62,199 nucleotides of DNA, filler included, from Rhizaria sp. SCN 62-66 (GCA_001724265.1; 2 parts of 2 records of this genome joined end to end with filler, not necessarily neighbours in it); one strand, 5' to 3'; shown: positions 2,924-62,199, numbered from the whole stretch's first letter. Notes: a model not told the origin generated them from the letters alone. Numbers and translations are program-made.

Positions 2924-2959
<36 letters not shown>

Positions 2960-7833: not shown

Positions 7834-8406
7834 GTTGGGTGCGTTGTCGTTGCTGCAGAGTGACTAATCTAAGGGAGGCCTGTTTGTTCAGACCGACTTC
7901 AGGCGGTTGGCGCGAAGGCTACTGAGAGGCGACTGGTCGTAAACAGCGCTTGAAGGGCGTTAATAGAAGTGATCTCGCTGCGAGTCGTGCGGCTTCTGTT
8001 ACGGATGCAAGGATGAGCAAGGCGGCGCGATGATTTGGGGTATAGGGGTTAGTCGGTGAGTGAGCCAGAAAGAAAGGGCGATGCAATTGGGGCAACATGA
8101 CGTGGGCCATCGAATGGGAAAGAAAAGATAGAACTGCACTAAAAACAAGCTCTTATTCAATCTAGAGTCTGGAAATCTTTGTGGACAGAAGGGAGCGCGC
8201 GCCTGCTACCCGTTTCGAAGCTTGGCAGATCGCCGCCTCAGCTCCCATGTTGCCACCACAACCAGGCAGCAAGACGGCTGGCTGCCGGTTGAGCGCGATT
8301 TGTGGTGGGAATCAAAATATCTTGAAATTCAGCGTATGACCGAGTGTTTTGAGATAATAAATGTATTTCTAAGTTAAATAAAACTAAACTATATAGATTT
8401 CTGGAA

Positions 8407-14400: not shown

Positions 14401-14958
14401 GCCGTAGCCGTGGGGCGCGTGGCTGCCGCTGGCGCTGCTGGCGCTGAAGCCGAAGGCGATACCGCCGCTACCGCGCGCGCTGTGGCTAAGGCTGTGACTG
14501 CCGCTCATGTAGTTGGTGTTGTGGGCTGAGCCGGGGCTGGAGGTTGAGACCGAGCTTGTGCTGAGGCTGGGGCGGCGGTGAGGGGAGTGCCGGGATAGGT
14601 AGTCTGTCGCAGCGGCGAGCGCAGCAGCGGCCTCGCTCCCACCACCACCAGGACCGAAATTGTTATTGTTGTTGTTTGATGCGTCAGAGAAGGAAACGCG
14701 GCGCGCGCTCGAGAACGCGGCGTCCTGCGTCGAAGACACGCGCGCTGGGCCATACGACAGCAATGATGGCGGCAAAAAGTGTCCGCCATGCGCGCCGGGC
14801 GCGGCGGAGAGCGAGAGAGCCTCGCCGATGTCGGCGGCGGCGACAGCAGAGCGCTGGTGCGCGATGTGCCGCTCCAGCCGAGCGCGGGCGTCGGTGACGG
14901 GGCCGGACGGGGTGTACCGCGCCGAGGACGGGGCGGAGCCGCGGTCGCCCGGAAACAT
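8407..14958 (-). CDS. Hypothetical ~2,183-aa coiled-coil/low-complexity protein, reading through an in-frame TAG at 10933-10935
   Basis: Track ORFs 10933..14958 and 8407..10932 abut in the same frame, separated only by one TAG inside a heptad-like segment (LLQQQEQIAQLQA*LDAANATVQKQRQQLESQ). Ends at TAA 8407-8409, followed by AT-rich sequence. No family recognised. Confidence 0.75.
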
Positions 14959-15799
14959 CCGCGTGAGACGAGTGCACAGGGGCTGTGCAAGGGCGAGAGT
15001 CGAGGAGAAAGAACAAGGCGAACTCTGGGAAACTGAAACTCGGCGAGGGTCCTGAAACGAGATTGAGGGAGGTAGAATCAGGGTATATGATGGCTTTTAG
15101 GCAATGAAATTGAAAAGATTATACGTTTTCGTTATTTTCAGTCTTGTTTTCATATTGGCAGAAACAACAACGGAGTTCTATGCGGTGATCAAGACTGTCT
15201 TTTATCATCGGGCTGAGGAGGCGCGCACGACCACGAACCCTAGCGCGAGGGTCAAAGGGAGACCGGATATCTCGCTGTTCAAGATGCGATGCGCGGTAAG
15301 ATGATCGTCAATGGCTGTGATGTTCTATTATGCTGCTTCTCTTTTACTTTTACGTATTTTCACAAAATATTTTTATGATCCATGGCGTTGAAGGCTGTCA
15401 ACCGCAGTCAGATGTCGTCATCGACTCAAGACCATTCTTTTTGCTTCACCATCTCAACTCCTCATGGCTTTCTAGCCTATTATATGCACTGTTCTTATCA
15501 GTTTCTTGGGGTATGCGCTGCTTTGCAGTTTCTTTTTTGCCTGCTGCTGATGTTTTCACCCCTGTGTGTCAATGGTTCACCATGTACTGTGAAGCTGGGT
15601 TCGAAGTGATCAAGATCTCAACAACTGCTGCAACAACAACACAGTCTAAGATAGTCGCGCCGTCCCTGATCCTCAATGTATATACATGTATTTCATTTTT
15701 TCACAGTATTGCTAATGTTCTATGCTAACATTGTTTCTCCACTTCTTTATCTTGCTTTGCTCTGCACACATAGAGCGTTCTCAAGCCTCTCGTTTGAAC

Positions 15800-16765
15800 A
15801 TGCTTCGCTCCCTCGCCCTCGGCTCGCGCAAACGCGCCAGCGCTGCCCTATTGAACGCCACAACAGCGGCTAGCGCGCGCTCTTTCTTCTCGGGCAGCGG
15901 CAGCGGCAGCTACAATAGCGCCCTCGCCGCCGCCTCCTTCTCAACTCTCTCGAACAACAACAACAGCAACAGCAGCAGCGGCGGCAGCAGCAACCGCAGC
16001 GGCGTCGGCCGCCTGGCAGTCACCCTCTCTGCCCCCGACGCGCGCCCCGTGCTTTACGTCTGCGACGTGCAGGAGACCTTCCGTCCGCCCGTGTTGCCGC
16101 AGCTGCCGGCCGTGATCGTCGGCGCGCGCGCGCTGATGCAAATCGCCAGGGCGCTCGACATGCCCGTGTTCGTGTCGGAACAGCGCCCGTTCAAGCCCAC
16201 GGTCGCCGAGCTCCGCACGCTCTACGACCCCGCGGCCACGGGTGACGCCGCCGCGGCCACGAGTGCCCCCACGAGTACCCCCGCAGGTGCCTCAGGTGTT
16301 CCGAGGGCAGCTCCCGGCGTGACCGTGGTGGGCGACAGCGAGGTCGCGTTCGCCGCTGAAGGGCTGCACCCCGTGACGCTGCTGCACAAGTCGTCCTTCT
16401 CAATGCTCGGCGACGGCCACGCCCCGCGCCTGCTGGCCGGGTACCCGCGGGCTGTGGTGCTCGCGGGCATCGAGGGCCACGTGTGCGTCCTGCAGACGGC
16501 GCGCGACCTGCTCCAGCGCGGCGTGTCGGTGTGGCTGCCCGCCGACGCCGTCGCCTCGTCGGACCCCGCGGCGTGCGCGGTCGCGTTGGAGCAGCTGCGC
16601 GCCGACGGGGCCGTCATCACCACCGTCGAGTCCGTGGCCTTCGAGCTCATGGGCACCGCCAAGAACCCGGCGTTTAAGAGCGTGATCGCCGTGATCAAGG
16701 ACCTCAAGAAGAGGAAAGACGAGCTCGCGGCGGCGACGGCGGCAGCGGCAGCGGGGAAGCAGTAA
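15800..16765 (+). CDS. Isochorismatase-family (ISOC-like cysteine hydrolase) protein with probable mitochondrial presequence
   Basis: Motifs VCDVQE, VFVSEQ, KSSFSM, VLAGIEGHVCVLQTARDLL, ADAVAS and ITTVESVAFEL. Arg/Ser/Ala-rich N-terminus MLRSLALGSRKR from ATG 15800. Stop is TAA. Confidence 0.9.
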   Translation: MLRSLALGSRKRASAALLNATTAASARSFFSGSGSGSYNSALAAASFSTLSNNNNSNSSSGGSSNRSGVGRLAVTLSAPDARPVLYVCDVQETFRPPVLPQLPAVIVGARALMQIARALDMPVFVSEQRPFKPTVAELRTLYDPAATGDAAAATSAPTSTPAGASGVPRAAPGVTVVGDSEVAFAAEGLHPVTLLHKSSFSMLGDGHAPRLLAGYPRAVVLAGIEGHVCVLQTARDLLQRGVSVWLPADAVASSDPAACAVALEQLRADGAVITTVESVAFELMGTAKNPAFKSVIAVIKDLKKRKDELAAATAAAAAGKQ

Positions 16766-17427: not shown

Positions 17428-17429
17428 CC

Positions 17430-19937: not shown

Positions 19938-21318
19938 ATGGCCGGCGCCAGCGCCAGCGCCAGTGTCAGTGCCAGCGCCAGCGCCAGCGCCAGCCTGGGT
20001 GTCAGCGCTAGCGGCGGCAGTGCCACTGGCAATGCCCGTGTTAGTTCCGTCAGCGGTGTAAGTGGCAGCGGTGTAAGTACCGCCGGCGGCGTAAGTACCA
20101 GCGGCGTTGACTGGTGCGCGCGGCTCCGGGGCTTCGTCACGCTGGTGCCCGGGGTGTGCGCGTTGATGTCGACGTATCACACGCGCGTGCTGCTGGGCGC
20201 CGCGGTTGTTGCCGTGCTGCTGAGCGAGTACTACGACGTCACGCTCTCGAATCACAGCAACAGCAACAGCAACAGCAACAGCGACATCTACAACGACAAC
20301 AACAACACTCTCACAAACGCCGCAAACGCTGCGGCTGGCGGTAACAAGAGCGTTTCGAATGCTACTAGATGGAGTTTTGAGCGGAGTGAGCGTGTGTTGG
20401 CGATTGTGCTAGGTATTGCATGCTTTGTTGCGGCGCATTTTGGCACTCATGCACTCTCCGCAGCATTCTACAGTACTATCTTGGTACGTTCGTAACAACA
20501 CATTGAACAAAACAGCAGAGTAAAACAAGTAGTTTTCATCACTTGTCCCTCCGTTATTCAACTTAATTTTGCTCTATTTTTCTTTAGTTGTTTTTATTTA
20601 ACAGTATCAAACTTGATTTAACTTAATATCTATTTGTTTCCTTGATGTTATCGCGCAGATGTCGTGTTTTTCCGCGCTCGCCGCCGCCGCCGTGGCCCCG
20701 CACCAGGCTCCGCCCACGGTCTGCTGGGCCGCTCTCACTCGGGCTCTGGCCGCGCATTGCTGGCTGTCGTATCTCTTTGCGCACGCGGGGCTGCTGCACG
20801 CACTATCCCAGCAACAGCAGGCTGTATTGGACACGGCGTTGGCGAGTGCACAGACTGCGGCAACCTTAACACCAGTTCACGCCGCCGTCTCCCCGCTTCC
20901 CGGCGGCCTCTGGCTGGTGCTATACCCCATTCTCACCGTCGTCGTGGGCGAAAACACCGGCCTTGTCGCCGGCGCGCTGCTGTCCCGGCTGCAGGGCGCC
21001 GGCGCGCACCGGCCATTCCCCACCTTGTCCCCGCGCAAAACGACCGTGGGCTACGCGGCCCAGGTCGCTGGCTCGGCGCTTTCCGCGGCCTATCTCGGGG
21101 CGCCGGAGCGGGTTTGTCTTAATATCATGCTCGGGGCCGCGTTTGGCGTGGTGGGCGCGGCGGGGGATTTGGTCGAGTCGCTGTTTAAGCGGGCGCACGA
21201 GCGGAAAGACGCTGGTGCCTGGCTGCCCGGCTGGGGCGGACTGCTGGACCGACTCGATGGAATTCTGTTCGCGTTCCCGTTAACCTTTTATATCTATACA
21301 CTTTTTACTCCTTATTGA
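19938..21318 (+). CDS. Phosphatidate cytidylyltransferase (CDP-diacylglycerol synthase, CdsA/CTP_transf_1 family), divergent. Exons 19938-20483 and 20659-21318
   Basis: C-terminal family signature SPRKT...GDLVESLFKRAHERKDAGAWLPGWGGLLDRLDG and several hydrophobic helices. Phase-0 AT-rich intron GTACGT...GCAG at 20484-20658. Stop is TGA. A possible 5'UTR intron (GTACGC...GCAG) lies at 19841-19920. Confidence 0.8.
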
Positions 21319-21931: not shown

Positions 21932-23976
21932 ATGCTCGCCTCCACCCCCGCCTCCGTGGTCACCTCGGCCCTCCGCGCCGCGCGCGCGACCCACGCCGTG
22001 ACCGTGTCCGCCGTCAAGACCTACTGCCCCGGCGCCGCCACCGCGACGCTCGCCACGGCGTCCCGCACGCTCACGGCCACCGCCGACGGCGCGCGCTTTA
22101 TCCGCGGCCTTGCAAGCGACTACGCGCGCGCGAACCCGCCCCTCGCGGCGCTGGTCACGACCTTCAACGCGCCCCTCGCGTGGCTCGCCGCCAACGCCGA
22201 CGCCACCGCGCGCAACCTCTCGTTCAAGAAGCCCCGCTCGAGCTACGACTCCGAAGTCGACGCCGAGGCCGAAGCCGAGCACGACTCGCGCGTCGGTTCG
22301 CTCCCGGCGCCCATGAACCCCGTCGCGGGCCGCTTCTGCGCCGCCTTCGAGCGTGCCGTTGCCTTCCCGCCCGCCGTGCTGCCAGTCACGCTGCTGCCGC
22401 CCTCGGCGCTCTCGGCCATCGGCATCAAGGCCAACCCGCCGCGCCTGCCGCTGTCGGACTCGTTCGCCGTCGTCGCCGCCGTCGCAGTCCTGCTTTTCCT
22501 GTTCTCGCGCCTCCTCAAGGGCGTCTCGGCCGCGCTCGGCCTCGGCCCCCGCCGCCATGCCAAGGGCCACGGCCCGCACAAGGGCACTGGCGTGGGCGCG
22601 CGCCCCAACGGCGTGGACCGCAGCGTGTTCCTGGTGGACATTGCGACGGTGGAGAAGTTCGACCCGCGCTGCGCGGTGACTCAGGCCCAGTGGTTCCCCC
22701 ACATCGTCAAGTACTTCGGCACCGAGCAGGAGGAGGTCGATTTCGACCGCAAGATCCTTGAGCGCAGCGGCATTAGCGAGACGACGCACCTGCCTCTGTC
22801 GATCCTGTCCAAGCCGCCGAACATCAACATCAAGACTGCGCGCCAGGAGAGCGAGACTGTCATGTTCGACGTCGTTAAGCAGCTGCTGGACCGCAACCGC
22901 ATCAAGCCGACCGACGTCGACATCCTCGTCGTCAACTGCTCTCTGTTCAACCCCACGCCCTCGCACGCCGCGATGATCATCAACCACTTCAAGATGCGCT
23001 CCGACATCGTGTCTTATTCCCTCGCCGGCATGGGCTGCTCCGCGTCCGTCCTCGCCACCGATCTGGCCAGTGACCTCCTCGCCACCTCGGCCAAGAAGGA
23101 CCCCATCGCCATCGTCGTCTCGTTCGAGAACCTCACTCAGAACCTCTACTTCGGCAAGGTCAAGCCCATGCACCTCGCCAACGTGCTCTTCCGCATGGGC
23201 GGCGCGGCTGTGATGCTGACCCGCTCCGCCAAGTCCGTGACGAAGCGCCACCCCGACGCCAAGTGGCGCCTCAACACGCTCGTGCGCGTGCACATTGGCG
23301 CCGACGACGCGGCCTACCAGTGCGTCTTCCAGGTGCGTCACACATTCTATCCCAAAACAAGAAACAAGAAAATTAATGATATGCTCATTTGATGTTTTCA
23401 TTCTCCATTTTCATTCATCCTGACTATTGCTCATTCACTTGTTTATTAAACTTTCTCTTGTTTTGCTTCATACAGGACTGCGACGACAAGAACCTGGTCG
23501 GCGTGTCGCTGTCCAAGGACGTGCCGCGCGTGGCGACCCGCGCGCTCACACTCAACATGTCTTCGCTCGGCCACCGCATCCTGCCCCTCTCGGCCAAGCT
23601 CGCGTACGCGGCGCGCGAGGTCATGCGTTCCGTGCGTACCAAGCTCTTCCGCCTCACCGGCGGCAGCGCCGAGGACGCCAAGAAGCGTTTCCCGCCCACG
23701 GTGCCCAACTTCAAGGCCGCAGTGGACTACTTCTGCATCCACGCCGGCGGCCGCGCGGTCATCGACGGCATCAAGGACACGCTCAGCCTCACCGAGAAGG
23801 ACGTCGAGGCCTCGCGCAGCATCCTGTACAAGTACGGCAACACCAGCTCCAGCTCCATCTGGTACGAGTTCCAGTTCACCGAGCGCAACAACCGGGTGAC
23901 CAAGGGGCAGAAGCTCTGGCAGATCGCCTTCGGCTCCGGCTTTAAGTGCAACTCCGCCGTCTGGGAGAAGCTCTAA
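21932..23976 (+). CDS. 3-ketoacyl-CoA synthase (FAE1/KCS-type very-long-chain fatty acid elongase condensing enzyme). Exons 21932-23332 and 23476-23976
   Basis: Motifs DILVVNCSLFNPTPS, GMGCSA (catalytic Cys), LFRMGGAAV, FCIHAGGRAVID (His), YGNTSSSSIWYE (Asn) and QIAFGSGFKCNSAVW. Phase-0 intron GTGCGT...ACAG at 23333-23475 joins CVFQ|DCDD. Stop is TAA. Confidence 0.93.
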
Positions 23977-25342: not shown

Positions 25343-27565
25343 TTACTGCTTGGGCACAGTGCGCGCGGCATGCTCCAGCAGCTCCACTGGCAGCGCCGGC
25401 AACACACGCCTTTGCCCCTTCCCAGTCCCATTGCCAGCGCCCGTCTTCGCGTTAACGCCGCGGTTCACTGCGCTCGCGTCAGCCCCGCCGGTGCTGCTGT
25501 TGCTGCTGGCGTTGAGGTGCGCGAGCGAGACGGGGAACGGCGCCACGGGCCCGGCGGCCGGCGCCGCGCCCGCGCCCGCCTGTAGCGGCGGCAGCGCGAC
25601 GGCCGCGGCGGCAAACGGCGGCCGCTCGAACCCGGCCAGGCGGCGCACGCCGGGCAGCTTGACGACGAGGCTCTGTGTGGCAGCCGTGGACATGGCAACG
25701 ATCCAGTACAGGAACAGCGAGGCCGGCAGGTGCAGCAGCAGCGGCGTCGCGGCTACGGCGCAGACCTGCAGCGTGGTGCTAAGTTTGGCCGCCATTGGGC
25801 TCAGACCAGCGCGGTTCACTCCGTTGCCGCCGCTCGCACTCGAACTCGAACTCGAATTGTCGCTAGAGCTATGAGCAGGAGCGCCAACGCCGCTGCTCGT
25901 GACTCTCGCGGTGGCGTTGTTCGTGTTAGAGCTGGCGCTCGCGGTGTTGTTGTTGTTGTTGGGGTCGGTGGGCGAGGGCGCGAAGCGGTGGAACGAGACG
26001 TTGATGTTGACGAGCGTAGCCGCCAGCGCCAGCAGCGGCAGCACCATTGTCTCGTCAGGCACAGTCAAGTCGGGCGCGAACCAGGGCCCCTCGGTGCGGA
26101 GGCCGTGGATCAGCGCCGCCGTTGCTGAGTCAGCAAAGTTCGTCAGTGAAGCCGCGCCGGAGGACGCCGCAGCTGCTGAGTCAGCGGTGGCGGAAACCAG
26201 ACCGCTCACAGTCGCTTCGCTGCTGCTTGCACTAAGTGAAGCCGCATTGTTGCTTAACGACGCCGAGTTGACTCCCGTGAATGCGTCCTTCGCATTGTAC
26301 GCAGTGTTGGCGGCGTTGCCGTTGCTGCCGCCGCTCAGACTGGGATGCGCGGTGTTGTTATCGTTTGCGATCGCGAGTAAGCGGCGACACGCTTGGTTGA
26401 AGGTGACGAACAGCGGAATCGACACGCACATGGGCGCCAGCAGCCGCAGCACGCTGACTCGGTGCATTTTGGCGTAGACGCGCAGCACGCGCAGCGCGGC
26501 CTGCGCGGCCTTAGCCTTGCCCGGCCGCGGGATGGCCACGGAGTCCGGCGGCAGCGCGAGCAGGGCCTGATACAACCCGCGCGTCTTGGCCAGCGGGGCC
26601 CTGAATCGCGCCACGCGCGCGGCGGCCCGGAGCTGAAAGGCGGCCACGGGGACGACCGCGAGGCGGAACACAAACGCGGCCAGGGCGAGGGACAGATACC
26701 ATGGCAGCCCCGTCGCGCTGTGGAGGGAGAGCAGGAACCGCTGGGCGGCCGCGATGGGTAGGGGCGAGGAGAGAGTGAGCAGGAGATCGCTGGCGGCTGA
26801 ATCGAGCGCCGTACTGCCGGGAAACGACGCAAACGCGGCCGCGTCTGATGAGTCAGCGGCGGCGGCGGCGGCGGAGTCGGCGAGCGGCGGAGTGGCTCTG
26901 ACGGTGTCGAAGAAGAATGTCGCGCCGCCGCTGGGACTTGCGCTGTTGCTAACACCGACACCGACGGCGGCGGTGGCGGCGTTGTTGGCGGCGTCTGTCG
27001 TTGTTGCAGCAGCAGCAGCGCTTGCGTCGGCAGAGGCAGCCGTCGTTGCTTTGCCGTTGCCAAGGAGTCCCCAAAACCACGCTTTGCGCGCCTGAGACGC
27101 TTTTGATGCATTGGTCTGTGACTGTGGGAGCGAGCGCGACAGACACTGCGACTGTGCGTGAGAAGCAGACGAGTCAGAGCTAGAGCTCGTCACCGAGCCA
27201 GTTGTGGCAGCGGGAGCAGCAGAGGACGCCGAGACAGAGGCTGAGGCAGAAATATTGCAAAATGCAACAGGGCCAAAGGTGGGGAGCGAGGGGGAGGACT
27301 CAGAGGCAGCAGCGAAGCCAGAGCGGGGCGTGCGGCTTGCACATGCTGTCAAAGAGCTCGCAACAGGAGTTAAAGCAGGAGAGAGCGCGGCAGAGTGCGC
27401 TTTGAGAGCAGTACCGGCGGCAGTGGCGCTGGGAGCCAAGGAGCGCATGTTGCTGTAGCTGTGGTTGTTACGAGCGATGAGCACGGCCGAGGTGGAAGTG
27501 CTGGAGACTGCGCTGGAGACTGCATGAGTAGCAGCCCGGGAGATGGCTGCTGAGCGTGCAAGCAT
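25343..27565 (-). CDS. Mitochondrial YidC/Oxa1/Cox18-family membrane insertase
   Basis: LHSATGLPWYLSLALAAFVFRLAVVP, SIPLFVTF, GPWFAPDLTVPDETMVLPLL and LPASLFLYW match Oxa1/Cox18 motifs. Long Ser/Ala/Arg presequence-like N-terminus. Stop is TAA. Confidence 0.85.
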   Translation of the reverse strand: MLARSAAISRAATHAVSSAVSSTSTSAVLIARNNHSYSNMRSLAPSATAAGTALKAHSAALSPALTPVASSLTACASRTPRSGFAAASESSPSLPTFGPVAFCNISASASVSASSAAPAATTGSVTSSSSDSSASHAQSQCLSRSLPQSQTNASKASQARKAWFWGLLGNGKATTAASADASAAAAATTTDAANNAATAAVGVGVSNSASPSGGATFFFDTVRATPPLADSAAAAAADSSDAAAFASFPGSTALDSAASDLLLTLSSPLPIAAAQRFLLSLHSATGLPWYLSLALAAFVFRLAVVPVAAFQLRAAARVARFRAPLAKTRGLYQALLALPPDSVAIPRPGKAKAAQAALRVLRVYAKMHRVSVLRLLAPMCVSIPLFVTFNQACRRLLAIANDNNTAHPSLSGGSNGNAANTAYNAKDAFTGVNSASLSNNAASLSASSSEATVSGLVSATADSAAAASSGAASLTNFADSATAALIHGLRTEGPWFAPDLTVPDETMVLPLLALAATLVNINVSFHRFAPSPTDPNNNNNTASASSNTNNATARVTSSGVGAPAHSSSDNSSSSSSASGGNGVNRAGLSPMAAKLSTTLQVCAVAATPLLLHLPASLFLYWIVAMSTAATQSLVVKLPGVRRLAGFERPPFAAAAVALPPLQAGAGAAPAAGPVAPFPVSLAHLNASSNSSTGGADASAVNRGVNAKTGAGNGTGKGQRRVLPALPVELLEHAARTVPKQ

Positions 27566-27699: not shown

Positions 27700-30544
27700 A
27701 TGCTGAGGAAACAGATTTCCAAAGTTTACACTGGACCTTTTGGTCAAATTCTAAAAAATACCACTTCAATCTCTTCCGAGACGCTCGTAACACATGTTTC
27801 GGGTATTGCTGCAGCCTCGCAATTCGCGACTGCTCCGTCACTGCCCACAGTCTCCGCCTCCCGCGCCTCCCTGCGCTCCACTAACGCTTCGCTTTTTACT
27901 GCAACCGCTGCGAGCGCGCAGCAGCGCTAGCAACAGGCCCTCACAGCGCTGATGAGCTCGCCCGCGGCCAAGCGCGGCGCGCTGCTGGCGCTGAAGTGGG
28001 TCGCAGCAGCAGCGCCCGCCCGCGCTTTCTCCGCTGCGGCTGCCAAGACACAGCAGCAGCGGCGCGCCCCGGGACAGATGCTGACTTGCAGCAAGCCTGC
28101 TGGTGGCTGCAGCACGGCTCTTGGCGCGTCTTTACTTGCAAAGGTACGTCTTATGAGTTTTTGTTTGCTCCATGTCCTGTTATTCCTTTGTGTTGATCAC
28201 TGCAATTCGACGATGAAAGACTCTCGGTGCACTATCTGCGCTAAATCACGCTACTGCTTTGTGACTAACTCATATCAAAACAATAGTTGGCTTCAGAAAC
28301 TTTAATTTAATTTTAAATCTATGTATACTAGTATTATTCTATATATTTGAATTCTCACCGCATCGCACTTATCCAAACTTCCTTGCTCTGTCGCTGCTGT
28401 TAGCCTGTTGTCGCCGCCGCCGCGGCCTCTGTGGCGACCGCCCCCGCGCGCGCCTTTGCCTCTGACCCGACGCTGACGGTGGGCCGCGGCCCCCGCGCGC
28501 GCACCTACGTTCTGCGGCCCTGGTGGAAGCGTCTTCTGCGCGCCCTCGGCATCGGCCTGGGTTCCATATGCGGCTTAGCTTTGGCGTACGGACTCTACGT
28601 GTACTGGGCGCCGCCGACATTCTGGCTCTACGCCGCCGCCATCTGGGCGCAGAAGCCCGCGCTGTTTGCGCGCCTTGCCGCCTGGGGGCTCGACCCCAAC
28701 GTCAAGGGCTTCGGCGGCTACAGCCCACTGCACTTACTGGTCGACAGCGACGACCTGACCCCCGGCTGCGACGCTCGCATCCGCGCCCTCATCGACGCCG
28801 GCGCGGACCCCAACGCGCGCGGGCCCGGCGGGCTGACGCCGCTGCACGTGCTGGGCGTGTCGCTTGTCGGCCGCAGCGTCTTTGACCGCGTCGACCCTCT
28901 CAGCCCGCAGTTCGTGCTCGCGGCCGCGCGAGCCCTGTTAGCCTCAGGTGCGGACCCGAACCTCGCCACGGACAACGGCGGACGGTTCCTCCACTCGCTC
29001 TGCTTCTCTAAGGGGCTCGCGTCGCTTGTGCACGAGCTTAGCGATGCGGGGGCGGACTTGGAGGTCCAGGACTCGTTATCCTACCGGCCCCTTCACTATG
29101 CAGTCGTCAACGATGACGCTTCGCTCGTCGCCGCGCTGCTCCAGCGGTACGCAAACAAAAGATATATCTTACAGTGATAAAAAACACACACATTGGATTA
29201 TTGTAATGAATTTCTATGCCGTTGTATGTCTATTTTTTAATGTTATACCAGTCTTGTTACTTAATTTTATACTGCATTTTGTCTTTTTGCTGCTGCGAAT
29301 ACAGCGGCGCCGACCCTGCCGCGCCGCTGCTGGCCGAGCACGGTGTGAGTCCGCTCGTGCTGGCCGTCAAGAGCGGCTGCAACCAGGCCCTGCGCGCGCT
29401 GCTCGACGGCGGCGCCGACCCCAATTACAACCCCCCGCCACCTGCCGTCACCAACCGCGGCCTCGACGGGGACGAGAGCGCCGCCTACTATGGCTCCCTG
29501 GGCAGCGCCTCGCCGCTCGCGATTGCGGTTGCCAACAACAGCTTTGAGGCCGTGCGCCTGCTGCTGGAGCGCGGCGCCAAGGTGACCAAGGAGGAGAACG
29601 AGGCGTTGCTGCTCCGCAAGGCGCAGATGCTCAACACCAGCGGCGGCGGCGGTGCGCCCAGCGGCTACGCTGCGTTTCCTGGACTGCAGCAGCAGCAGCC
29701 GCAGCAGCCGCCGTTTGGCGCGTACAACGCGTATGGCGCGTATCCGGGCGGCTATCCTGGTCCGCAGCAGCAGCAGCCGCCGCCGATGTACGCCGGCAAT
29801 CCCGGCAGCATGAGCAGTATGCATCAGCACCAGCAGCCTCAGCAGCAGCAGGACCCGCAGCAGGTGTTGCAGCAGCTGCAGAGCATCATCGCCGCCGGCA
29901 ACAGCGCCGGAAGCAACCCCAAGGCCGCGGCCGCGAGCGCGCACCTCGCCAGCATGACCGGCGGCCTGGACGCCGGCCACGGCCACGGCAGCGGCGGCTT
30001 TGCTGGTAACCCCTATGCCGGCCAGAACTTCGGCGGCGCGTACGGCAACGTGACCCCCTTACCCCACGGTACTTACCCTGGCGCTCCCGGCGCTTACCCA
30101 GGTGCTCCCGGCGCTTACCCAGGTGCTCCCGGCGCTTACCCAGGTGCCCCTGGCGCTTACCCGGGCGCGCCTGGCGCCAACGGCGGATACGGCGGCTTTA
30201 ATCCCGCTGCCGCCCCCGCTGCCGCTGCTGGTGCAACTGTTGGCGGCGTCGCTGGCGCTGGCTTCAACCCTGCTGCCTATGGACTTAGCCCGAGCCCGTC
30301 CAACCCGTACCTGAACCACAGCAGCGCCGGCGGGAGTGCGGGCGCTGGCACTGGCATGTTCATGGGTAAGCCCACCGGCGGCGCAGCGGCAGGCGGCGGC
30401 GCGGGAGGCGGCTTGAGTTCCGGTAGCGCGTCGCGCGACCAGCAGGCTCTGCTGCGGATGCTGATGAACCCGGACGCGGACCCGCGTGCCGGGGTCAGCA
30501 CGCCCGAGGTCGGCGCCGGTGAGGGCAGGGGGCGCGGCAAGTGA
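27700..30544 (+). CDS. Ankyrin-repeat protein with a hydrophobic segment and a G/P/Y/Q-rich C-terminal tail. Exons 27700 (or 27952)-28143, 28404-29146 and 29305-30544
   Basis: Ankyrin repeats (GYSPLHLL...LIDAGADPNARGPGGLTPLHVL; RPLHYAV...LLQRGADP). Introns 28144-28403 (phase 0) and 29147-29304 (phase 2, restores LLQR-GADP). Stop is TGA. The start is uncertain: ATG 27700 requires reading the TAG at 27928-27930, ATG 27952 does not. Confidence 0.75.
30070..30177 (+). repeat. About five copies of a 21-nt coding tandem repeat encoding YPGAPGA
   Basis: Near-identical units such as TACCCAGGTGCTCCCGGCGCT, in frame. Confidence 0.9.
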
Positions 30545-31217: not shown

Positions 31218-31314
31218 TTACTGGGAGCCGGCAGCAGCGCGGGGAGGGCGGTCACCACGGGGGGGGCGGTCGCCGGCGGGGCGGTCACCACGGGGGGGGC
31301 GGTCGCCGGCGGGG
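31218..31314 (-). CDS. 3' fragment of a gene cut by the gap: ...PAGDRPPRGDRPAGDRPPRGDRPPRAAAGSQ-stop (33-nt tandem repeat)
   Basis: Open GC-rich frame with codon usage like neighbouring genes, ending at TAA 31218-31220 and followed by an AT-richer UTR-like stretch. Confidence 0.6.
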
Positions 31315-46400: not shown

Positions 46401-49400
46401 GATTGACCGAAAAAGGCGTTGGCAGTCTGTGTAATAAGACCACCGAAGAGATACGTCGCATCAAGCGTGAACTTGAAGTCGGTGGTGGCGAACTAGCTCA
46501 GCTCATATGGTACACGGTAAGTCACGTTGAATTGCGTATACCGAAGGCCTGCAAGAGAGCAGCCGGTCAGCGTATCTGCAACCTTACTCGTGCACGTCTC
46601 AAATGAGGTTGGTGGGCTTGCGATTTGCGTTGATTGTGTGTAAGCGTAGCTGATTGTGAGAGTAGTCACCGTGCTGAAGAAAAATACCTTGGCAGTGTAA
46701 ACCTGGTTCGTCTGGGCAAATACCTCAGGCGGCTCCGTCACGTTTGACACGGTAGCAGAAATTACTGTGGTAATCATGTGCGACACAACAACGCTTGGAG
46801 GGGAGTTTGTGATCGTCTCATCCGTCAAATCGGTATTTTGCATCGTGACCGACACACCAACCACGTTGGAGCCCAGCATGCCCGCGGAAGATCCATAAGT
46901 TGTAAACAACATTTGGTAGTCGGAGTAAGTCGTTCGCACAGGACCAAAGCGGATCACCCGAACTGCATAGTACGCGTTACCGGGGCTTGTGACAGCATCG
47001 CAGTTGGTGAGTCGCAACAAACTCGTACTTTCCACAACCGGTGTGCAGGACATGGCGGTGTACTCAGTCAGGGTAGAGGCCGTTGTCGTGATGCCGGACG
47101 AGAATTGCAAGCCGGGCGCAATGGCCGCCTGCGTAGTTAGATTCAAAGCCCAATTGGTAGCAAGTGTGGTGTGGCCAAACAAAAGCAGCTCCCATGTCAC
47201 ATCAACCGGTGCAGTTGCATGTGTGGCATCGGCTGGATTCACAGTCGACGCGAGCTTTGCCGAAACAGGATACATCGTAAAGTCAAAGTGACGACTGAAC
47301 GCAGTAAGCGCGATTGGCGCAGTACCTGCCCGGGCCAGAGTACCCGCTGTGGTAGTTATGGTAATGTAGGTAGAGGGTTCAAAAGGATAGAACACGCTAT
47401 CAGTAACGTCAAAGCGCACGCCTACCGTATCGCGTGTGGTGACACGATAAGACGTTGCTGAGTTAAGCGCAACGGAGCCAGTGGCGCCAGACACCATGAC
47501 GTGCGGGCCAGAGGTCATGTTGGCAATAGAGTAGTCAAACGTGCCTGCAGCAGGTTTCGATGCGTAAATGTACATTCGAAGCGAAATCAGGAGGTGACGC
47601 GAAAGGACAACAGTGACACCAGTCACCATAGTACGATCGAGAGCTGTGAAGTGCCAATAGAATTGAGGAGTCGACGCGACACGCAGCAAGAGCGGTGCCT
47701 TGGCGGCCACACCGTTGGTCGGGTTGCCCGGCGTAAGAAGCTTCACCGCAGTTGCCACCAGCTCATAGGGATCCAAGGTAGAAACGCGATGAGCGTTGTT
47801 GTCAAACACAACCGCCATGTTTGTTACTGTACAGCTAATTACGGAATCGACGCCTGCTGTGAAAGATTTCGTTGAGGTGACTTTGAGCGCTAAAACGGAC
47901 TTGCTCTGAAGAACGCAGTCTCCGCCTACAGCCGCGGCCGAGAAATCAAGCGAGTTTGCAGCTGCAAAAAATGTGAGTTGACTCGCGCTTGTAAAATCTT
48001 CAGCTGAGTTGATGACGAAGACACCTCCAACAGTTGTCGTCACTTGCATAGGGTCTAAAGCCGGTGTGATGCTAAAACTGGAAGCGGTATAGCCAAACGT
48101 CACTAACGGAATGCGTCCATAGGAAACGTCGTGAAGAGCGGTGAACGTTCCGTTAGTGTTGGTGAGACTAAAACACTCCTTTGGCAGAAGCTGTGTACTT
48201 GCAAACGCGTTGCTCTCTGCGCTGCCAAGATAGTAGCCGTCAGTGACACGAAGACCAAAGTACTTGGGCTGAACGGAGGGCAGGCATGTTGCGTTGGCAG
48301 TCACAGTTGAAAACGTAGTCCCGTAGCAGGACGCAATCAAATTCAAGGTAGTAACAGCTTTGCCAGATCCCTGGAAAAGCCCGCAGTCGCTGCGGATAGT
48401 GACCGTGCTGCTTGCGACAGAAGTGCTGAGGGGGAAAATATAATTGGAGCACCGCGGTCAAATCAGTGCCAATCCAGGCATTGTTTGTCAAAAGCACGTG
48501 AAATGCAAATGGCATGCCGGCAACAACAGGCACGGCCAAAGATGTGCTTGTGAAGGCGCCGACTGTGGCAGTCTGAGCGCCGCCAACAACGTATGAAAAC
48601 GACAGTGCAAACGAAAAATCAGTCGTTGCAGCGGTGGCATACTCATAGAGGACAGTATATGACTGAGTGAAAGAGACCGGCATTGGCACCGTTGCTGATG
48701 ACGTGCATGTGACGCTGCCTGCAGTCAGTACAGTGCAAGAGTCAGTGGAGGTTGGGGCGCCAATGGTGGCACTTGCGCCCGAATAGGAGTACGCTGCTGT
48801 CATGGTCGAAATTCGTTTAAAGAAAAACACCTTCATCAAGTACGTCTGTGTCGTCGATGCAGTATCTGTTGGTGTCGTTGCTGTTGGGCTTGTCACTGCG
48901 GCCGAGTTGACCACCTTGGTCTTCATCTGGGGCACGACATTAGGCAGCGACGTAGACGCAATAATAGTCTCGTCCGTCAAATCGGTATTCTGCTGAGAGA
49001 CCCAGACGCCGGACGAGGCAATTGTGCCAATCATACCTGTTGTCGTCGAATACGTTGTAAACATGGCCATATAGCTCGCGTAAGTGGTGCGCACTGGCCC
49101 GAAGCGGAGAACGCGCGGCACAAAGCGCGCAGAGCCCGCGGTGGTGATTGGGGCACAGGAAGAAAACTGTATGGTGGTCTCCGCTGTAACAGACGGCGTG
49201 CATGTGACGGCCGTGTAGTCGGCCGACGCCGATGTCTCCATAGCAATTCCTGACTTGAACACGGTTGCTGGTGCAATGCCAGCCTGCGCGTTGATGATAA
49301 ACGACCAGCTGGCGCTGAGAGCGACGTGCGCGAAGATGACGACTTCGAACGACACGTCGACGGGCGCTGTTGTATGGCCGGCGTCTGCGGCGACGACGGC

Positions 49401-54574: not shown

Positions 54575-56796
54575 AGCAGTTATTTCCAATGTTGTTGGTG
54601 TGGTAGAAGGTGCGGCACCAACAGCGCCCGCTGTGGACTGAGGCATCGTGACTTGAGAGCGCTCTAATGGACGTGGCGAACGCGCAAGAACGCATATAGG
54701 GGTACAACCCGTTCGTATTTAGAAAGATCGAGACTGGTCCAGCTTGGGAAAGGCAGAATTTGCGGTGAGCTTTTTCGAAGGCAAGATCGTTACAAAATGT
54801 TACTTTACAATAATATCCTAAATATGAGCCAACTTTGTGCCTGAAAAATTGACGCAATAATGCGCTGCAATGAATTTGAAACGTTTACTGGGTAGTTTTA
54901 ATGAATGCAGTCTGCCAGAGAAAAGCGGGCGTTCGGCAGGATCGGAACACAAAACCAGCTCACAAACCATGAAGACAGAGATTGAAAAAGGAAATAATCG
55001 CAGAGACGCAACGTAGAACATATTATTATGCAACTAATATGCACATTAACGGTATTAATTTGCTTCAAATATCGATTTTCCGCACCATGATGGCCAGGCG
55101 CCCATGTGCGACTGTGGGTGGCCAGTCAGACAGCCAACAACAAACACAGGAGAGTCAGATTATGTCGCCGCGTGATGAGCGGCTTCAGGTTTGAGATCGC
55201 AATATGTTGTTTCAACAACGCGGATCTGTTGGCGTATGTCCTGCAGACTTGCTTGCGAACGGTGTCTGGGAAGCGTTGCTGCCGTGTTTGCACAACCCCC
55301 AACGACTATGTATCGTACGCGCTGTGGCCATCGTGACACGCGCGGTCCCTTGCGCGCGTATGTTTGAGATTTTGCGTCTGTCTTCTCAGTCCGCACTCGA
55401 GCAACTGCGGCTTTCCCTCGCCCGTGTTGGGCCAACGCGCGCGCTTGATATGCGTTCGGAACTCCGCTTTCTCAAATCTCTCGTCCAAGCGTCTGCTGAC
55501 CGAGCTGACGAGCGTGATCCGCGCCTTCGAGTCCGTAGAAACCGTCGGCAGTCTTGTCTCGGTGAAAGCGGTGCAGGAAAGAGAGCCGCTGGTGGGTTCA
55601 CTGCGGAGTTGTGTCGCTGCGGGGGCTTTGAACCCCGCGGCGGCGGTGTTTCTCGTCAACGACGGCCGCCGCGCGCTGCGCAGGCTCTTCGGGCTCGAAT
55701 CGGACGAGTGCGGCGAGTGCGGGGGCGCTCGCGCGCTGTGGATGCTGCTCGAGGCGACTGCACCGGGCGCGGTGGGCCGGCAGAACGCGGTTGCGGGGGA
55801 GCCGTCGGTGGACGAGGAGAGGGCGATGGGTCGTCGTGGTGCAGCAACGTTGCCCAACGCGTTTAAAGTTGTGGTGATATTGTCAGATATGCAAAGTCGA
55901 CGTGCCTGACTAGGATTGGGGCGTAATTCTCATCAAGAGATTGATTATACTAGTACATCTACATGTATTGACTTAACCATCATCAGTAGAGAGATATAAC
56001 GAGAAAGCGAGCATAATGAACTTATTACATGGCATTGAATTTCAAGAATAACACCGTGATCTTCTGCATACACACGTTATAATTACGTCAAAAATTATAT
56101 GCTGAAATTTCAGTTTTATAGCTTGTTATCACGTAGAGATATCGCGATTTTTCTGTTTTGTCCACAAATGGTTTTTAGAGTCGTGAGAGCCTTCGAGCTC
56201 GCGGAGCCGCGCTTTTACGAAATGCACGTAACTAAACAAATATATCTTGGAATTGCGCCAAAGATTGATGTTTTATTAATTTCTATGAGCTTTAGTTTTA
56301 GACGCATTTACATCACTTCGAAATATTATGTATTTAAGGCAGGCAAATGCTTGGCAAATCAAGGCGCGGGTGCTCAAATCTTCGAGAATGTCAAATTTTG
56401 GACAGCTATTTGCGAACCATGATGACGCTTTGTGAATGTTATTAGCTTTTCATAGGAATCTACTCCAATTTGTCTATTGGATATGCATTAATTGATGCCA
56501 GTTCTGACACATCGGTGGTGAGTCGGCGCATTTCGGTTAATTGAGCAGGCTGGAAGCCACGGTCGGCAGTCTTTGGAGATATCATCAAATCGATTGAAAA
56601 TGACGTTGTGTTTGGAGATTCATCAGTTCTCTGCAGGTGTAGCGAGAGCCTACACTGCCGATTTAATTGATCGCGTTATATTGTATCTCATTGGACATGT
56701 ACAAGTTCCTTTTTGCGCCTTAAAGACCACTGAACTATTCTCGTCACTCACTGCTCGTCCGCACCCCCCTATTCCATGCGTGTAGTCACACACCTT

Positions 56797-59700
56797 ATGG
56801 GCACATATCAGCAGTTCAAGGCACTGCTGGTAAAGAATGCCCTTCTCAAGCGGCGCAAGCCCATATCAACCTTCATTTTCCTCGTGCTGCCCGCACTGTT
56901 CATGCTCCTGATCGTGTGGCTGCACAGTTTCACAGAGTCGCAGTACTACCCTGCGGCGCACCACCTCGACGACACATGCGACCTCTCCGTCGATGCTGCG
57001 CTCACCACACTCGCGCCGCGCCTCGCACTTACCGACGGCTTCCTTGCATTTGCCCCGGCGCCCGCGTTCGCCTCCGTCGTCGCACGCCTCACCGATCCCG
57101 CCGCGAACGTGTCGCTCGCCGAGAAGTATGTCCGCACTTTCCCCACCATCGCCGACCTCGACGACTACATCACCTCGAAGCGCTACGGCACCGCCGGCTA
57201 CCGCAACGTCTACGCCGCCGCCATTGCGCCCTCCGGCTTGCTGACGGGCCCTGATTATGCGTACACGCTGCGCTTCAACGTCTCCGCGGGCGCGTACTCT
57301 GGCACGCCGGACACGAAGAGGGTCGCGCGTTTCAACGACGTGACGCCTGGATACTCCGCGTCGTCGTTCAACATCTACTGCGACCGCGGGTACATGGCGC
57401 TACAGCTCGCCATCGACACCGCAATCCTTCACGACGCCGGCGCCTACGTGCACACAACGAACAGCAACGAGCCGCAGCTGCAGGTGGTGCCGATGCCGAC
57501 GCGCTAGTACACGCAGGACAAGTTCAGCGACCTCATCGGCAGCTACATGGGCTTCTTCTTCACCGTGCTCGGCGTGCTCCCGCTCACAATCGTCGTCGGC
57601 GAGCTTGTCTCCGAGAAAGAGCTGCGCATCCGCGAAGGCGCGCGCATGATGGGGCTCAAGGCGTGGGTCATCTCGGCCACCTGGCTCACCACGTACGCAG
57701 TCATGTTCGTCATCACCGCCTTGCTGATGGCCCTCGCGACGGGCTGGTCCGTGTACAAGCACTCGATCCCGGTGATCATTTTCGCGATGTTCTACCTCTT
57801 TTACATCTCCCTGTACGCCTTTGCGTTCTTCATGTCGTCGTTCTTCTCGCGCGCGCAGACTGCGGCCGCGTTCTCGGCCATCATCTTTATCGCCTCACTC
57901 TTCCTCGGTGACCTCGCCACCAACGCTGACAGCCGCGGCGCGAAGCTTCTCGGCGCCCTGGCGCCCCCTGTCGCGCTCTCAATGGGCTCGCAGACTGCGT
58001 CGCGCCTCGAGTCCGCCGGTGTGGGCGTAACGCGGGGCACGTTCACCTCGCAGATCGACTTGTTCTCCGTCGCCGACAGCCTTCTCATGATGTTCATCGC
58101 CTCAGTCATTCTCATGCTGCTGGGCGTGTACTTGCAGGAGGTGCTGCCCAACGAGTATGGCACCCCGCGCAAGTGGTATTTCTTCCTCAAGCCCTCGTTC
58201 TGGTGCGGCAGCGGCAGCGGCAACGACAGAGTCGCAGTCGCCCCCGCCGCGGACCCCGTCGTGCGCCCGCACTCTCTCAACGACGCCGTCGGCCACGTCA
58301 GCCTCAGCGGCAGCCGCGGTGGCGGTGCGGACGCGGCCGACGACGGCACTGGCAGCGTTTTGACGATCTTTGACAACGAACCCTACTCCAAGATCGAGCC
58401 GCCGGACATGGTGCTGGCGGGCCGCGAGCTGGTGCGTCTGCGCGGGCTGCGCAAGACGTTCCCGCAAGTCAACGCGGCGGGCGAGACGGTCCAGTTCGCG
58501 GCGGTCAACGCGCTCAGTCTCGACATGTACGAGGGCCAGATCTTCACACTACTGGGCCACAACGGCGCCGGCAAGTCGACGACGTTCAACATGTTGACCG
58601 GGCTTTTTCCTATGACTAGCGGCAAGGTGACCGTGCTAGGCCGCGACCTGGCCGCTGAGATGGATCAGATCCGCAAGCACATGGGCGTTTGCCCGCAACA
58701 CGACATCTTGTACTCGCACCTCAGCGTGCGTGAGCACCTGGAGCTGTACGCCGCCATCAAGGGCGTGTCGCAGCTTGACATTCCGGCCGTTGCGCAGAGC
58801 ATGCTCGACGACGTTGGGCTCGGTATTGCGGGCGACAACAAGGCCGACGCGCTTGCTGGCACGCTCTCCGGTGGCCAGAAGCGCAAGCTCTCGGTCGGTA
58901 TCGCGCTCATCGGCGACTCAAAGATCGTGTACCTGGACGAGCCGTCTTCAGGCATGGATATCGCGTCACAGCGCGTGATTTGGGACCTGCTACTGCGCTC
59001 GAAGGCCGGTCGCGTGATTGTCCTGACAACCCATTCGATGGAGGAAGCCGAGCTCGGCGACCGCATTGCAATCATGGCTAGTGGTAAGCTCATGTGCAAC
59101 GGCTCGTCGCTCTTCCTCAAGCACCAATACGGCGCCGGCTACACGCTCACGATCTCCAAGGCCAAGGTGGGCGCGCTCGTCGCTGCTTCTGACGCGGGCC
59201 CTCAGTCTCCTGATGCCTCCGCCGCTGTCGTTAACGCGCTCGTCTCTGCGACCCCCGTGGCGTCGCCGCTGTCCCCGTCGAGCGCGGCTGAGGTCGACGC
59301 CGCGGTCAACAGCGCGCTCGCCGCCGCGGCCGCCGCGGGCATCACGCCCGTGCGCGCGCTCGTCACGGCTCTCGTTCCCGCTGCAGAAGTGCTCTCAGAC
59401 GCGGGCGGCGAAATCTCGTTCAGGCTCCCGTTCACCGCGGCGAGCACGTTCCCGCTGCTTTTTGACGCGCTGGAGCAGCGCAAGGTCGAGCTGGGCGTCG
59501 CCGCGGCGGGCATGTCGGTTACCACGCTGACGGAGGTGTTCCTGCGCGTCGGGCACGGCGTCGCTGCTGACAACGACACCGCCAGCAGTGGCAGTGGCAG
59601 TGGCAGTGGCAGTGGCAGCAACGCTCACGCTGGTGCTATCGAGGACAGTGTTGTGAAGACAACTGGCAGCAACTCGATCGAGTTTAAGGGCGACAGCAGT

Positions 59701-62199
59701 AGTCTTGCACCCAACGGCAACGAGGTTGACAGCGTCGGCAGCAGCAGCAGCCACGTTGGCGCAAGCGCAAGTCTTGCCAACGTCAATGTGACCGTGGGTA
59801 ACGCCGCCGATCGCGCGCTGAACGACGATGCTGAGAGAGAGCACTACGCTGCGATGTCGATCGACGAGGCCGAGGGCTCAGTGCGCACTCTCCCGCGCGC
59901 TGAGGTTCTCATCCGCCACACGCGCGCGCTGATTCTGCGCCGCCTTCACACTGCGAAGCGCGACCGACGCATGTGGGTGTGGCAGCTGCTCTTCCCGTTC
60001 CTCATCCTGCTCGTGTTTATCCTTGCTACGAAGTTCGCCATCAAGGCCACGTTCCCCGCCACAATCACCACGCTCGCGGCGATCCCGAGCGCCGTCACTG
60101 TGCCGTTCGCCAACGCCACGCGCATCGCAGGCACGACTGCGCCGGACGCGCTGCAGGCGCTGATGGTTGGCGTTGAGGCCCAGAACTCGCGGCTGACGCT
60201 TGAGCCGCTGCAGGACCTGCCTGTTGACCCTGAGGCGACGTGGCCGCAGCGCTTCTCTGACGTGCTGCTGGCTAAGATCAAGGACGGTGATGATGAGAAC
60301 GCGACGGACTCTGTTGCGGATCACGACTCGGGCGCGACTGCTGTCTCTGAGTCTAGGAACGCGCAGACGGGCGCTGTTGCAAGCTTTGTGACGCACGCGA
60401 ACGAGTATTTGCGCGACGTTGCTGCAGCGCTGCTTCGCGTTGTCACTGACGAGGATGACAGTGACATCCCGCCGCGGTACATCGCGATGGGCTACAGCCA
60501 GCTGACGAACTTGCCGAGCGGCGTGACCGACGACAGCGAAGTGACCGTGGGCGACGAAGAAGATGATACCTTTGTCTCGAGCGTGCTGTTCGTCAACGCG
60601 ACCGTGCGCGACGGGCTGCCCATCGCGGTCAACACGTGGACCAACTCGCTGCTGCGCGCCACGCACGCGGTCAACGCCGCTGCGGACCCAGTGCCGACGG
60701 TGACTGTGACGAACTAGCCGCTGGACAAGACCCGCTCGCAGATGGTGCTCATGTCGGCAACGGCCGCGTTCGCCGTGTGCATCGCTATGGCCTTCGTGCC
60801 GGCCACGTTCGCCGCGTTCCTCGTCAAGGAGCGCGCGGATAAGGGCAAGCACCTGCAGCTCATCAGCGGCGTGTCGCCCATCGCGTACTGGCTCTCTGCG
60901 CTGCTGTGGGACCTCGTCAACTTCGTGCTGCCGTTCGCGCTCGTGATGCTGGTGCTGCTGGTGTTCGACGTCACGTCACTGCTCGGCGAGTCTGTGGGGG
61001 TGACTGTGCTCGTGCTCTGGCTCTTCTGCCTCGCAGTCGCACCTTTCACGTACTCGATGTCGTTTCTCTTTGACTCGCACTCGGTGGCGCAGAACATGAC
61101 TCTGCTCGTCAACTTCTTCTTCTCCGTGCTCCTGCTTATCGCCTACATTGTGATGCAGATCAACCCGTCGACGTCGAGCCTCAACAGCCACCTGGCGTTC
61201 GTGTACCGTCTCTTCCCGCCCTTCTGTCTCGGTGAGGTCATGGCCAACCTCATGGTTCGCGACTCGCGCACTGCCTTCCGCACGCCGCTGGGGCCCTGGG
61301 ACCTTAAGGTCTCTGGCTGGGCTCTCATCTTCCTCGTCATCGACTTCGTGATCTACACCGTCCTGCTTGCGTGCATCGAGCACGTGCATTCGAGCGGCTC
61401 TTTCTCCGCCGCGCTCAAGGCGCTGCCCTGCGGGTCTCGCCACCGCGAGTCCGGTGTGGCAGCGGCCACGAGCCAGAGCAGTGGCCTGAGCCGGTACACC
61501 GAGCTTTTCAATGACGGCAGCGCCTCGAACTCAGCTGCTACTACCAACGGCGTGAGTCTGGGTGACGGCGAAGATGAGGACGTGGCCGCTGAGCGCGCGC
61601 ACATCTTGGCCGGCCAGTGCGACGATCCCGAGCGGTTCATGGTCACGATCAAGGGCTTGCGCAAGGTGTACCCGTCGCGCCTCGGCGCCAAGCCGCACGT
61701 GGCCGTCGCAGACTTGTACTACAGTGTTGGCAAGGGCGAGTGCTTTGGCTTCCTCGGCGCGAACGGTGCGGGTAAGACAACCAGTCTCAAGATGCTCAGT
61801 GGTGATGAGACGCCGACATCCGGCACTGCGCTGCTGGGTGGCTTTGACATCCTGCACAGTCCCTACGAGGTCCGCCAGCTCATCGGCTACTGCCCGCAGT
61901 TCGACGCCCTGCTGCCGCTGCTCACCGCGCGCGAGCACCTTTCGCTGTACGCGCGCATCAAGTGCGTGCCGGAGGCGCGTGTCGCGCGCTTTGTGGCGGC
62001 GTTGATCGCGAAGCTCGGCCTCGATGACATCGCTGACAAGCCTGCCGGCACGTACTCCGGCGGCAACAAGCGTAAGCTCTCGGTCGGTATCGCTCTCGTT
62101 GGCAACCCGCTGATCGTGTTCCTGGATGAGCCGTCGACGGGCATGGACCCGCAGGCGCGTCGCTCGATGTGGAAGCTCATTTCGTCCACGATGGCCAAC
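56797..62199 (+). CDS. Full-size ABC transporter, subfamily A (ABCA), intronless here, 3' end beyond the window, with two in-frame TAGs (57505-57507, 60715-60717)
   Basis: N-terminus QFKALLVKNALLKRR, then EKELRIREGARMMGL. NBD1: GHNGAGKST, LSGGQKRKLS, YLDEPSSGMD, LTTH. Second half: FLVKERADKGKHLQLISGV. NBD2: GANGAGKTT, YSGGNKRKLS, FLDEPSTGMDP. All in one frame, interrupted only by the two TAGs. Confidence 0.95.

Follow-up and report, generated by a model that had tools for sequence, protein, structure and literature searches.

Does UAG encode an amino acid in the nuclear genes of the organism from which this DNA derives? The stretch analyzed here (the window; 62,199 nt, with genes of 53-70% GC separated by AT-richer spacers) comes, by its gene content, from a eukaryote, and four of its genes, including one for an ABCA-type full ABC transporter (the ABCA gene), are interrupted by single in-frame TAG codons. 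An earlier interpretation of the DNA (the sequence-only reading) had proposed that UAG is read as sense while UAA and UGA remain stops, and among all explanations that we tested, this one accounts best for the five sites in 62 kb. We conclude that UAG is probably a rare sense codon in the nuclear genes of this host, with UAA and UGA as its stops. This conclusion is based on open reading frames (ORFs) that are joined through TAG, gapless alignment columns at both TAGs of the ABCA gene, GC content at third codon positions (GC3) that continues past them, the intact end of that gene, the recurrence of TAGs in independent sequencing runs, the synonymous nature of other variants, and the absence of TAG from gene ends. 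We propose that a tRNA with anticodon CUA would decode UAG and that an eRF1 with lost or weakened UAG recognition would leave the codon to it, the combination for which PMC5304391 argues in known codes where UAG alone is reassigned. The rarity of UAG and its placement at poorly conserved positions suggest that the reassignment is recent or still weakly used.

In-frame TAGs in four genes

The window is composed of two joined contigs of one bin (1-31314 and 31415-62199, ~31 kb each), because positions 31315-31414, previously taken for a gap, consist of N44 + TTAATTAATTAA + N44, a synthetic spacer with stops in all frames; the TAA at 31363 is part of it and ends no gene. A six-frame scan found single TAGs at 57505, 60715, 46493, 10933 and 4687 that link long same-frame ORFs in four genes, on both strands and in both contigs, exactly as the sequence-only reading had claimed. 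The genes are:

56797..62199, plus strand: ABCA-type full ABC transporter gene, of which the 5' 1801 codons are present before it runs off the window; open frame 56734..62199, with 257, 1069 and at least 494 codons around TAGs 57505 and 60715
31415-54700, minus strand: giant repeat-module gene of more than 7,400 codons, 3' end missing at the contig edge; 655 and 832 codons around TAG 46493
8407..15096, minus strand: coiled-coil gene, a low-complexity ORF of 2183 codons; 1388 and 842 codons around TAG 10933
1..7863, minus strand: ankyrin gene of more than 2611 codons, with Ank Pfam matches near the N-terminus; 1059 and at least 1562 codons around TAG 4687

The TAGs themselves, with residues numbered in the ABCA protein of the window (P0001), are:

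57505..57507, plus strand: TAG no. 1 of the ABCA gene, residue 258, in transmembrane domain 1; GC3 0.88 before and 0.93 after
60715..60717, plus strand: TAG no. 2 of the ABCA gene, residue 1328, at the start of transmembrane domain 2; GC3 0.83 before and 0.93 after
46493..46495, minus strand: TAG of the giant repeat-module gene, unchanged in contigs of two independent runs (X3 and X4, see below)
10933..10935, minus strand: TAG of the coiled-coil gene, with the nearest Met past it ~200 codons on; GC3 0.66 before and 0.69 after
4687..4689, minus strand: TAG of the ankyrin gene; GC3 0.62 before and 0.82 after

When TAA or TGA was read as sense in the same scan, no comparable ORF joins appeared. 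Across 10 gene models (16,884 codons) we counted five TAG, no TAA and no TGA in frame, which bears out the earlier claim that neither TAA nor TGA interrupts the genes, and the remaining two frames of those stretches (33,768 codons) contained 164 TAG, 192 TAA and 654 TGA. UAG accounts for ~0.03% of codons in the window. Specifically, the ABCA, coiled-coil and ankyrin genes contain TAG as their only disruption, with no frameshift and no TAA or TGA in 6,595 codons. For the TAGs of the coiled-coil and ankyrin genes (10933 and 4687), the evidence consists entirely of ORF continuity and composition.

The bases at position +4 after the TAGs are T, C, T, T and A, and the next codons are TAC, CCG, TTC, TTG and AAC, with no shared motif; the differing 3' contexts described earlier, without a readthrough motif, are therefore as stated. 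Programmed readthrough resembles the situation here in that a ribosome passes a UAG, and its usual outcome is a short C-terminal extension on a minor share of the product. The TAGs here differ in lying deep in the ORFs of four genes, hundreds and up to 1700 codons from the gene ends, and with five different downstream codons we reject programmed readthrough as their cause.

Several other TAGs were not counted as coding. TAG 28401 lies at a probable intron acceptor, TAG 7864 is upstream of the ankyrin start codon, and TAG 43997 is out of frame past a frame change. A probable sixth site in the sequence-only reading, TAG 27928..27930 (plus strand), was not supported as coding: a Met follows 8 codons downstream and begins a presequence-like N-terminus, GC3 upstream of the TAG is only 0.53, and the codon may lie in a 5' UTR. 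This region, upstream of a second ankyrin gene, contains two similar Ala-rich, presequence-like stretches (27949-28100 and 28404-28470, plus strand), both with APARAF.

Conserved sequence around the ABCA TAGs

The nearest relative of P0001 in the protein collection is P0002 (1912 aa), whose gene has no internal stop. Their identity is 63% across 1843 aligned positions, beginning at residue 23 (the Met at 56797). P0002 aligns straight across both TAG sites with K opposite each, and the flanks of both TAGs (PMPTR-x-YT and TVTVTN-x-PLDKT) are identical in it. We read the corresponding columns of further homologues from local BLASTP alignments: at site 258 all 103 covering homologues were gapless (E 43, A 31, K 10, P 7, D 4, Q 3, other 5), and at site 1328 a residue was present in 118 of 121 homologues (H 67, Q 10, W 7, K 5, S 5, and others) and a gap in three. 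The gapless residue columns and the identical flanks exclude introns at these sites, in agreement with the earlier view that introns are not the cause of the TAGs in this gene.

The claim that the ABCA gene is intact was likewise supported. ABC_tran and ABC2_membrane_3 each match the protein in two stretches (Pfam), both TAG sites fall inside ABC2_membrane_3 matches (1078-1545 in the case of site 1328), and the alignment runs to the terminal residue of P0002. In addition, the collection holds a C-terminal fragment of the same gene (P0243, 624 aa), called from the first Met past the second TAG, which is 78% identical to P0002, has the same terminal residue, and is conserved in that alignment in the Walker A, signature and Walker B stretches of the second nucleotide-binding domain. 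ABCA is thus conserved beyond both TAGs and is under apparent purifying selection there.

Named sequences are distant from this transporter: among the ABCA matches, none of the named ones exceeds 45% identity. In a FastTree phylogeny of 64 sequences (64 of the 121 listed matches, namely the first 58 and the named ones, each with at least 400 aligned residues), the window ABCA and P0002 fall in a clade that holds no named sequence. A search of metagenome contigs with the ABCA C-terminus returned 80 loci (best 46% identity) and no contig of the host or a near relative, and the same search of genome contigs returned one bacterial match (26% identity) and, again, no contig of the host or a near relative.

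Codons at gene ends

Seven gene ends are visible in the window; five are TAA, two are TGA and none is TAG. They are given with the genes that they close and with GC3 before and after, except for the last, where overall GC is given:

8407..8409, minus strand: TAA, end of the coiled-coil gene; 0.72 before and 0.49 after, with GC of 0.39 in the next 150 nt
16763..16765, plus strand: TAA, end of an isochorismatase-family gene (Pfam match); 0.96 before and 0.30 after
21316..21318, plus strand: TGA, end of a cytidylyltransferase-family gene (Pfam match, intron present); 0.71 before and 0.42 after
23974..23976, plus strand: TAA, end of a FAE1-type 3-ketoacyl-CoA synthase gene (21812-23976, two exons, Pfam match, AT-rich GT-AG intron at ~23335-23475); 0.97 before and 0.42 after
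25343..25345, minus strand: TAA, end of an Oxa1-like gene (weak 60KD_IMP match, 24.3 bits against a curated cut-off of 35); 0.87 before and 0.37 after
30542..30544, plus strand: TGA, end of the second ankyrin gene (Ank matches); 0.81 before and 0.38 after
31218..31220, minus strand: TAA, end of a gene fragment lying at the first contig's edge, with a 31-codon open frame; GC 0.85 before and 0.41 after

All seven ends named in the sequence-only reading are therefore real, although the one at 31218 closes a gene fragment that is apparently separate from the giant gene. The composition after each of the seven is AT-rich and non-coding. Past six of them (four TAA, two TGA) GC3 collapses to 0.30-0.49, whereas it stays at 0.93 after both ABCA TAGs. 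Seven ends are too few to settle whether UAG ever terminates.

This small number leaves room for a dual meaning of UAG, in which the codon terminates some genes and is efficiently read through inside others by near-cognate tRNAs or a weak suppressor. Such a code would fit the scarcity of in-frame TAG (0.03% of codons), its tolerant positions and the heterogeneous residues opposite it in orthologues (K, K and A). We nevertheless consider a dual meaning rather improbable: a transporter with two internal TAGs would need near-complete decoding at both, the 3' contexts differ and contain no known readthrough motif, and TAG stands at none of the seven ends.

TAA is favored at these ends (5 of 7) although GC3 of the coding sequences is 0.7-0.97, which is unusual for such a GC-rich genome. 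The preference recalls the near-exclusive use of UAA that PMC5304391 reports for Guttulinopsis, a relative of the rhizarian exLh, in which nearly all genes end in UAA.

TAGs and variants in independent sequencing runs

In a sequence-run index, the DNA matches metagenomes from bioreactors, wastewater and activated sludge. Run X1 (2015) is the probable source, and X2, X3 and X4 contain 79-91% of the sampled words; X3 (2017) and X4 (2025) belong to two studies other than that of X1. We compared Logan contigs of four runs over 43000-62199, a stretch that includes the ABCA and giant-gene TAGs and has TAGs 4687 and 10933 outside it. Contigs of X3 contain TAGs 57505 (contig 57010-58194), 60715 and 46493 without any differing letter. 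Contigs of X4 have TAGs 60715 and 46493 unchanged, and 57505 is not shown among the pieces listed. A contig of a further run, X5 (57264-57535), keeps the TAG at 57505 with no other letter changed. The TAGs of the ABCA gene and the giant gene (57505, 60715 and 46493) are thus real DNA, with one departure: a second X5 contig (60608-61053, 446 nt) reads CAG at 60715 as its sole difference.

The X5 library is labelled RNA-Seq cDNA and was rated as probably DNA. Taken at its label, the lone C at 60715 in 446 nt could reflect U-to-C RNA editing that turns UAG into CAG before the mRNA is translated. We regard this as very improbable, given that the other X5 contig retains TAG at 57505, that the library is probably DNA, and that strain polymorphism is a simpler account of the X5 result; no nuclear U-to-C editing of such kind is known to us. 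The CAG may be an intact allele or, with TAG read as Gln, a synonymous polymorphism. It indicates that the lineage has or had Gln at 60715, so that a synonymous TAG/CAG pair is the simplest reading. The other ABCA variants among the runs (58548, 62088, 62094 and 62100), located between and after the TAGs, are all four synonymous third-position changes, and those of the giant gene comprise one Ile/Thr change and one in-frame 3-nt indel.

A last possibility that the runs bear on is that minute in-frame introns contain the TAGs or that errors of sequencing or assembly produced them. One X4 contig joins 57282 to 57529 and so skips 246 nt (a multiple of 3) that include TAG 57505. We set this joint aside as an intron: its shorter side spans only 22 letters, its ends are not GT/AG, and three equally weak joints of this type link Walker A to signature motifs. 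Moreover, skipping 57283-57528 would remove 82 residues that align gaplessly to P0002, the TAG columns correspond to single residues (gaps in 0/103 and 3/121 homologues), the genuine introns in the window are AT-rich, GT-AG and ~120-140 nt long, and the TAGs recur in independent assemblies. We exclude both sequencing error and tiny introns in the case of the ABCA gene; for the TAGs as a whole this explanation is extremely unlikely.

Nonsense mutation as the serious rival

Some observations weigh against UAG as a sense codon. In-frame TAG is 16 times rarer than TAG in the other two frames (5/16,884 vs 164/33,768), and the codon is still strongly avoided in frame. There are just five sites, none in a conserved column, and with homologue residues that disagree (K, K and A in the nearest orthologues) these five variable sites appear to settle no amino acid. 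A tRNA with anticodon CUA was found within the window neither by ARAGORN nor by Rfam, which both give a tRNA-Glu(TTC) gene (17356-17429, plus strand, within an AT-rich spacer) as the sole RNA gene, and no eRF1 gene lies within the 62-kb window. Among the pieces listed, no unambiguous RNA read spans a TAG; the eight listed contigs of X9, a polyA-RNA run, are all on the ABCA and giant genes, and none of them crosses one. If TAG 60715 is a nonsense mutation, the CAG of X5 could represent its intact allele, and the change from CAG to TAG is the commonest nonsense path here, TAG making up 55-58% of the single-step paths to a stop. Finally, the giant gene has, besides its TAG, two genuine +1 frame changes (~48435 and ~44189, minus strand), each beside a TTTCCCC(C) run, and its TAG could simply be decay.

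Together, many of these points describe random nonsense mutation, which is the serious rival. Under this explanation the host would use the standard code. In a clonal lineage where selection is relaxed, each TAG would mark a loss-of-function allele, fixed or heterozygous, or else a young pseudogene. The abundance of CAG (371 codons) means that C-to-T nonsense would mostly yield TAG, and the TAGs of the ABCA and giant genes are indeed at variable positions. The explanation would, however, require that four of ~10 genes were knocked out, the ABCA gene twice, and mixed disruptions are seen only in the giant gene, while the ABCA, coiled-coil and ankyrin genes are free of any but TAG. Neither the colinearity of ABCA with P0002 to the last residue, at 78% identity past the second TAG, nor the GC3 of 0.93 downstream of both of its TAGs is what decay would be expected to leave, and the same applies to the four synonymous changes among its four other variants. 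The TAG alleles were also sampled repeatedly, in the source run (2015) and again in two other studies (2017 and 2025). If the mutations were random nonsense, the probability that all five would be TAG under this codon usage is 0.05-0.07, and TAG is absent from the seven gene ends. We therefore judge random nonsense mutation unlikely, and continue to favor UAG as a sense codon.

The giant gene, in which that rival finds its best footing, encodes modules of ~720 residues with 33-42% mutual identity, with Sushi repeats at the end and no other Pfam match. Its GC of 0.53 and GC3 of ~0.55 are far below those of neighboring genes (0.64-0.70), and it has a relative of 7,944 aa in the protein collection (P0369). 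Opposite TAG 46493, gapless alignments place T and S in paralogous modules of the same gene; the nearest orthologue (P0363, locally 61% identical) has A there, and others have T, T, T, S, F and I. At ~48435 the frame change is a simple +1 shift across which the modules of relatives align contiguously; at ~44189 the gene lacks ~260 residues found in its relatives P0363 and P0366. Contigs of both X3 and X4 carry this second change, a listed X4 contig carries the one at ~48435, and the 4,258-codon frame downstream is still fully open. Introns were rejected for the two sites, as a 20-nt GT..AG candidate gives the wrong frame and an acceptor at the second site would delete a conserved FPL motif. 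Possible explanations of these frame changes are recent damage, a tolerated deletion or programmed frameshifting.

The amino acid that UAG may specify

Our leading guess for the amino acid is Gln, because of the CAG at 60715 in one run and because of precedent. Lys is the main alternative, because the nearest ABCA orthologue has K at both sites. Homologues at large favor E or A at site 258; at site 1328 H prevails and Q is second (10/121). Leu is a poor fit and was set aside (0/103 and 1/121 homologues at the ABCA sites, none at the giant-gene site), and Ser remains a candidate (2/103 and 5/121 homologues, plus one paralogous module). TAG would represent ~1% of Gln codons if it means Gln (5 vs 371 CAG and 115 CAA).

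Relation to known UAG-only codes

UAG and UAA nearly always change meaning together, and UAG alone is sense in a handful of nuclear lineages, according to PMC11687900 and PMC5304391. PMC5304391 describes exLh (UAG = Leu) and Iotanema spirale (UAG = Gln); PMC11687900 adds Scotinosphaera (Ser), Protocruzia tuzeti (Gln) and three events in phyllopharyngean ciliates, where UAG is Gln or Leu and UAA is a stop. A separate decoupling is reported for the ciliate PL0344, in which UAA is Lys and UAG is Glu (PMC10553269). We found no report in the literature of a UAG-only code in a wastewater eukaryote, and the available text of a giant-virus catalogue (PMC13524828) had no bearing on TAG here. The host is a probable further case of this rare reassignment.

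As in the fornicate Iotanema, where PMC5304391 describes UAG alone as reassigned, UAA as a retained stop and UAG as a minor codon (~8% of Gln codons), UAG appears here as a minority codon, although ~10 times rarer (5 vs 486 CAG and CAA combined, or ~1% if Gln). Gln, its meaning in Iotanema, is also our leading guess. The host has GC-rich genes and the Oxa1-like gene (a weak match), and nothing indicates that the two are related. The rhizarian exLh (Sainouroidea) would be similar to the host in being a non-ciliate protist with a UAG-only code and UAA as the main stop, but in exLh UAG occurs 384 times in frame across 71 genes, for the most part where Leu is conserved (PMC5304391), whereas Leu fits the TAG sites of the host poorly. 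A single protein may hint at kinship between the two. Specifically, the ketoacyl-CoA synthase matches sequences from plants and green algae and one record labelled Lygus hesperus (P0131, 53% identity, among the better named matches), and the Lygus hesperus transcriptome is contaminated by the sainouroid exLh, as PMC5304391 reports. With one protein at 53% identity, this link would be suggestive at most.

These ciliates and Scotinosphaera would share with the host the decoupling of UAG from UAA. The host differs in its 31-kb contigs with several genes, its genes of 53-70% GC and its ordinary GT-AG introns. Such contigs would be unlike the AT-rich ciliate genomes that have gene-sized chromosomes.

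If UAG is a sense codon here, the host would be a further UAG-only case, in an uncultured eukaryote that is GC-rich, lies outside the ciliates and has turned up repeatedly in bioreactors sampled over ten years, and the very low use of the codon (~1% of Gln codons if Gln) would add to the interest of the case. With a relative at 63-78% identity whose ABCA gene is free of stops, the two would form a natural lineage pair for studying stop-codon capture, one that could show the order of tRNA and eRF1 changes and the positions where the codon first spreads. A bolder scenario, which we treat as a long shot, is that a deep-branching wastewater clade is in very early UAG capture, that UAG may mean lysine (which would be new for nuclear UAG), and that the clade may tolerate +1 frame changes in a surface-protein gene of 7,000 codons.

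In practical terms, gene callers that use the standard code split the genes of this host at every TAG, and the host's own ABCA, giant-gene and other proteins are present in the public collection as fragments (P0243, P0364 and P0365). A minor observation concerns the ankyrin and coiled-coil proteins (1-15096), which consist mostly of low-complexity runs (poly-Ser, poly-Asn, poly-Gln, Ala-rich and Asp/Glu-rich) despite a GC content of 66-70%.

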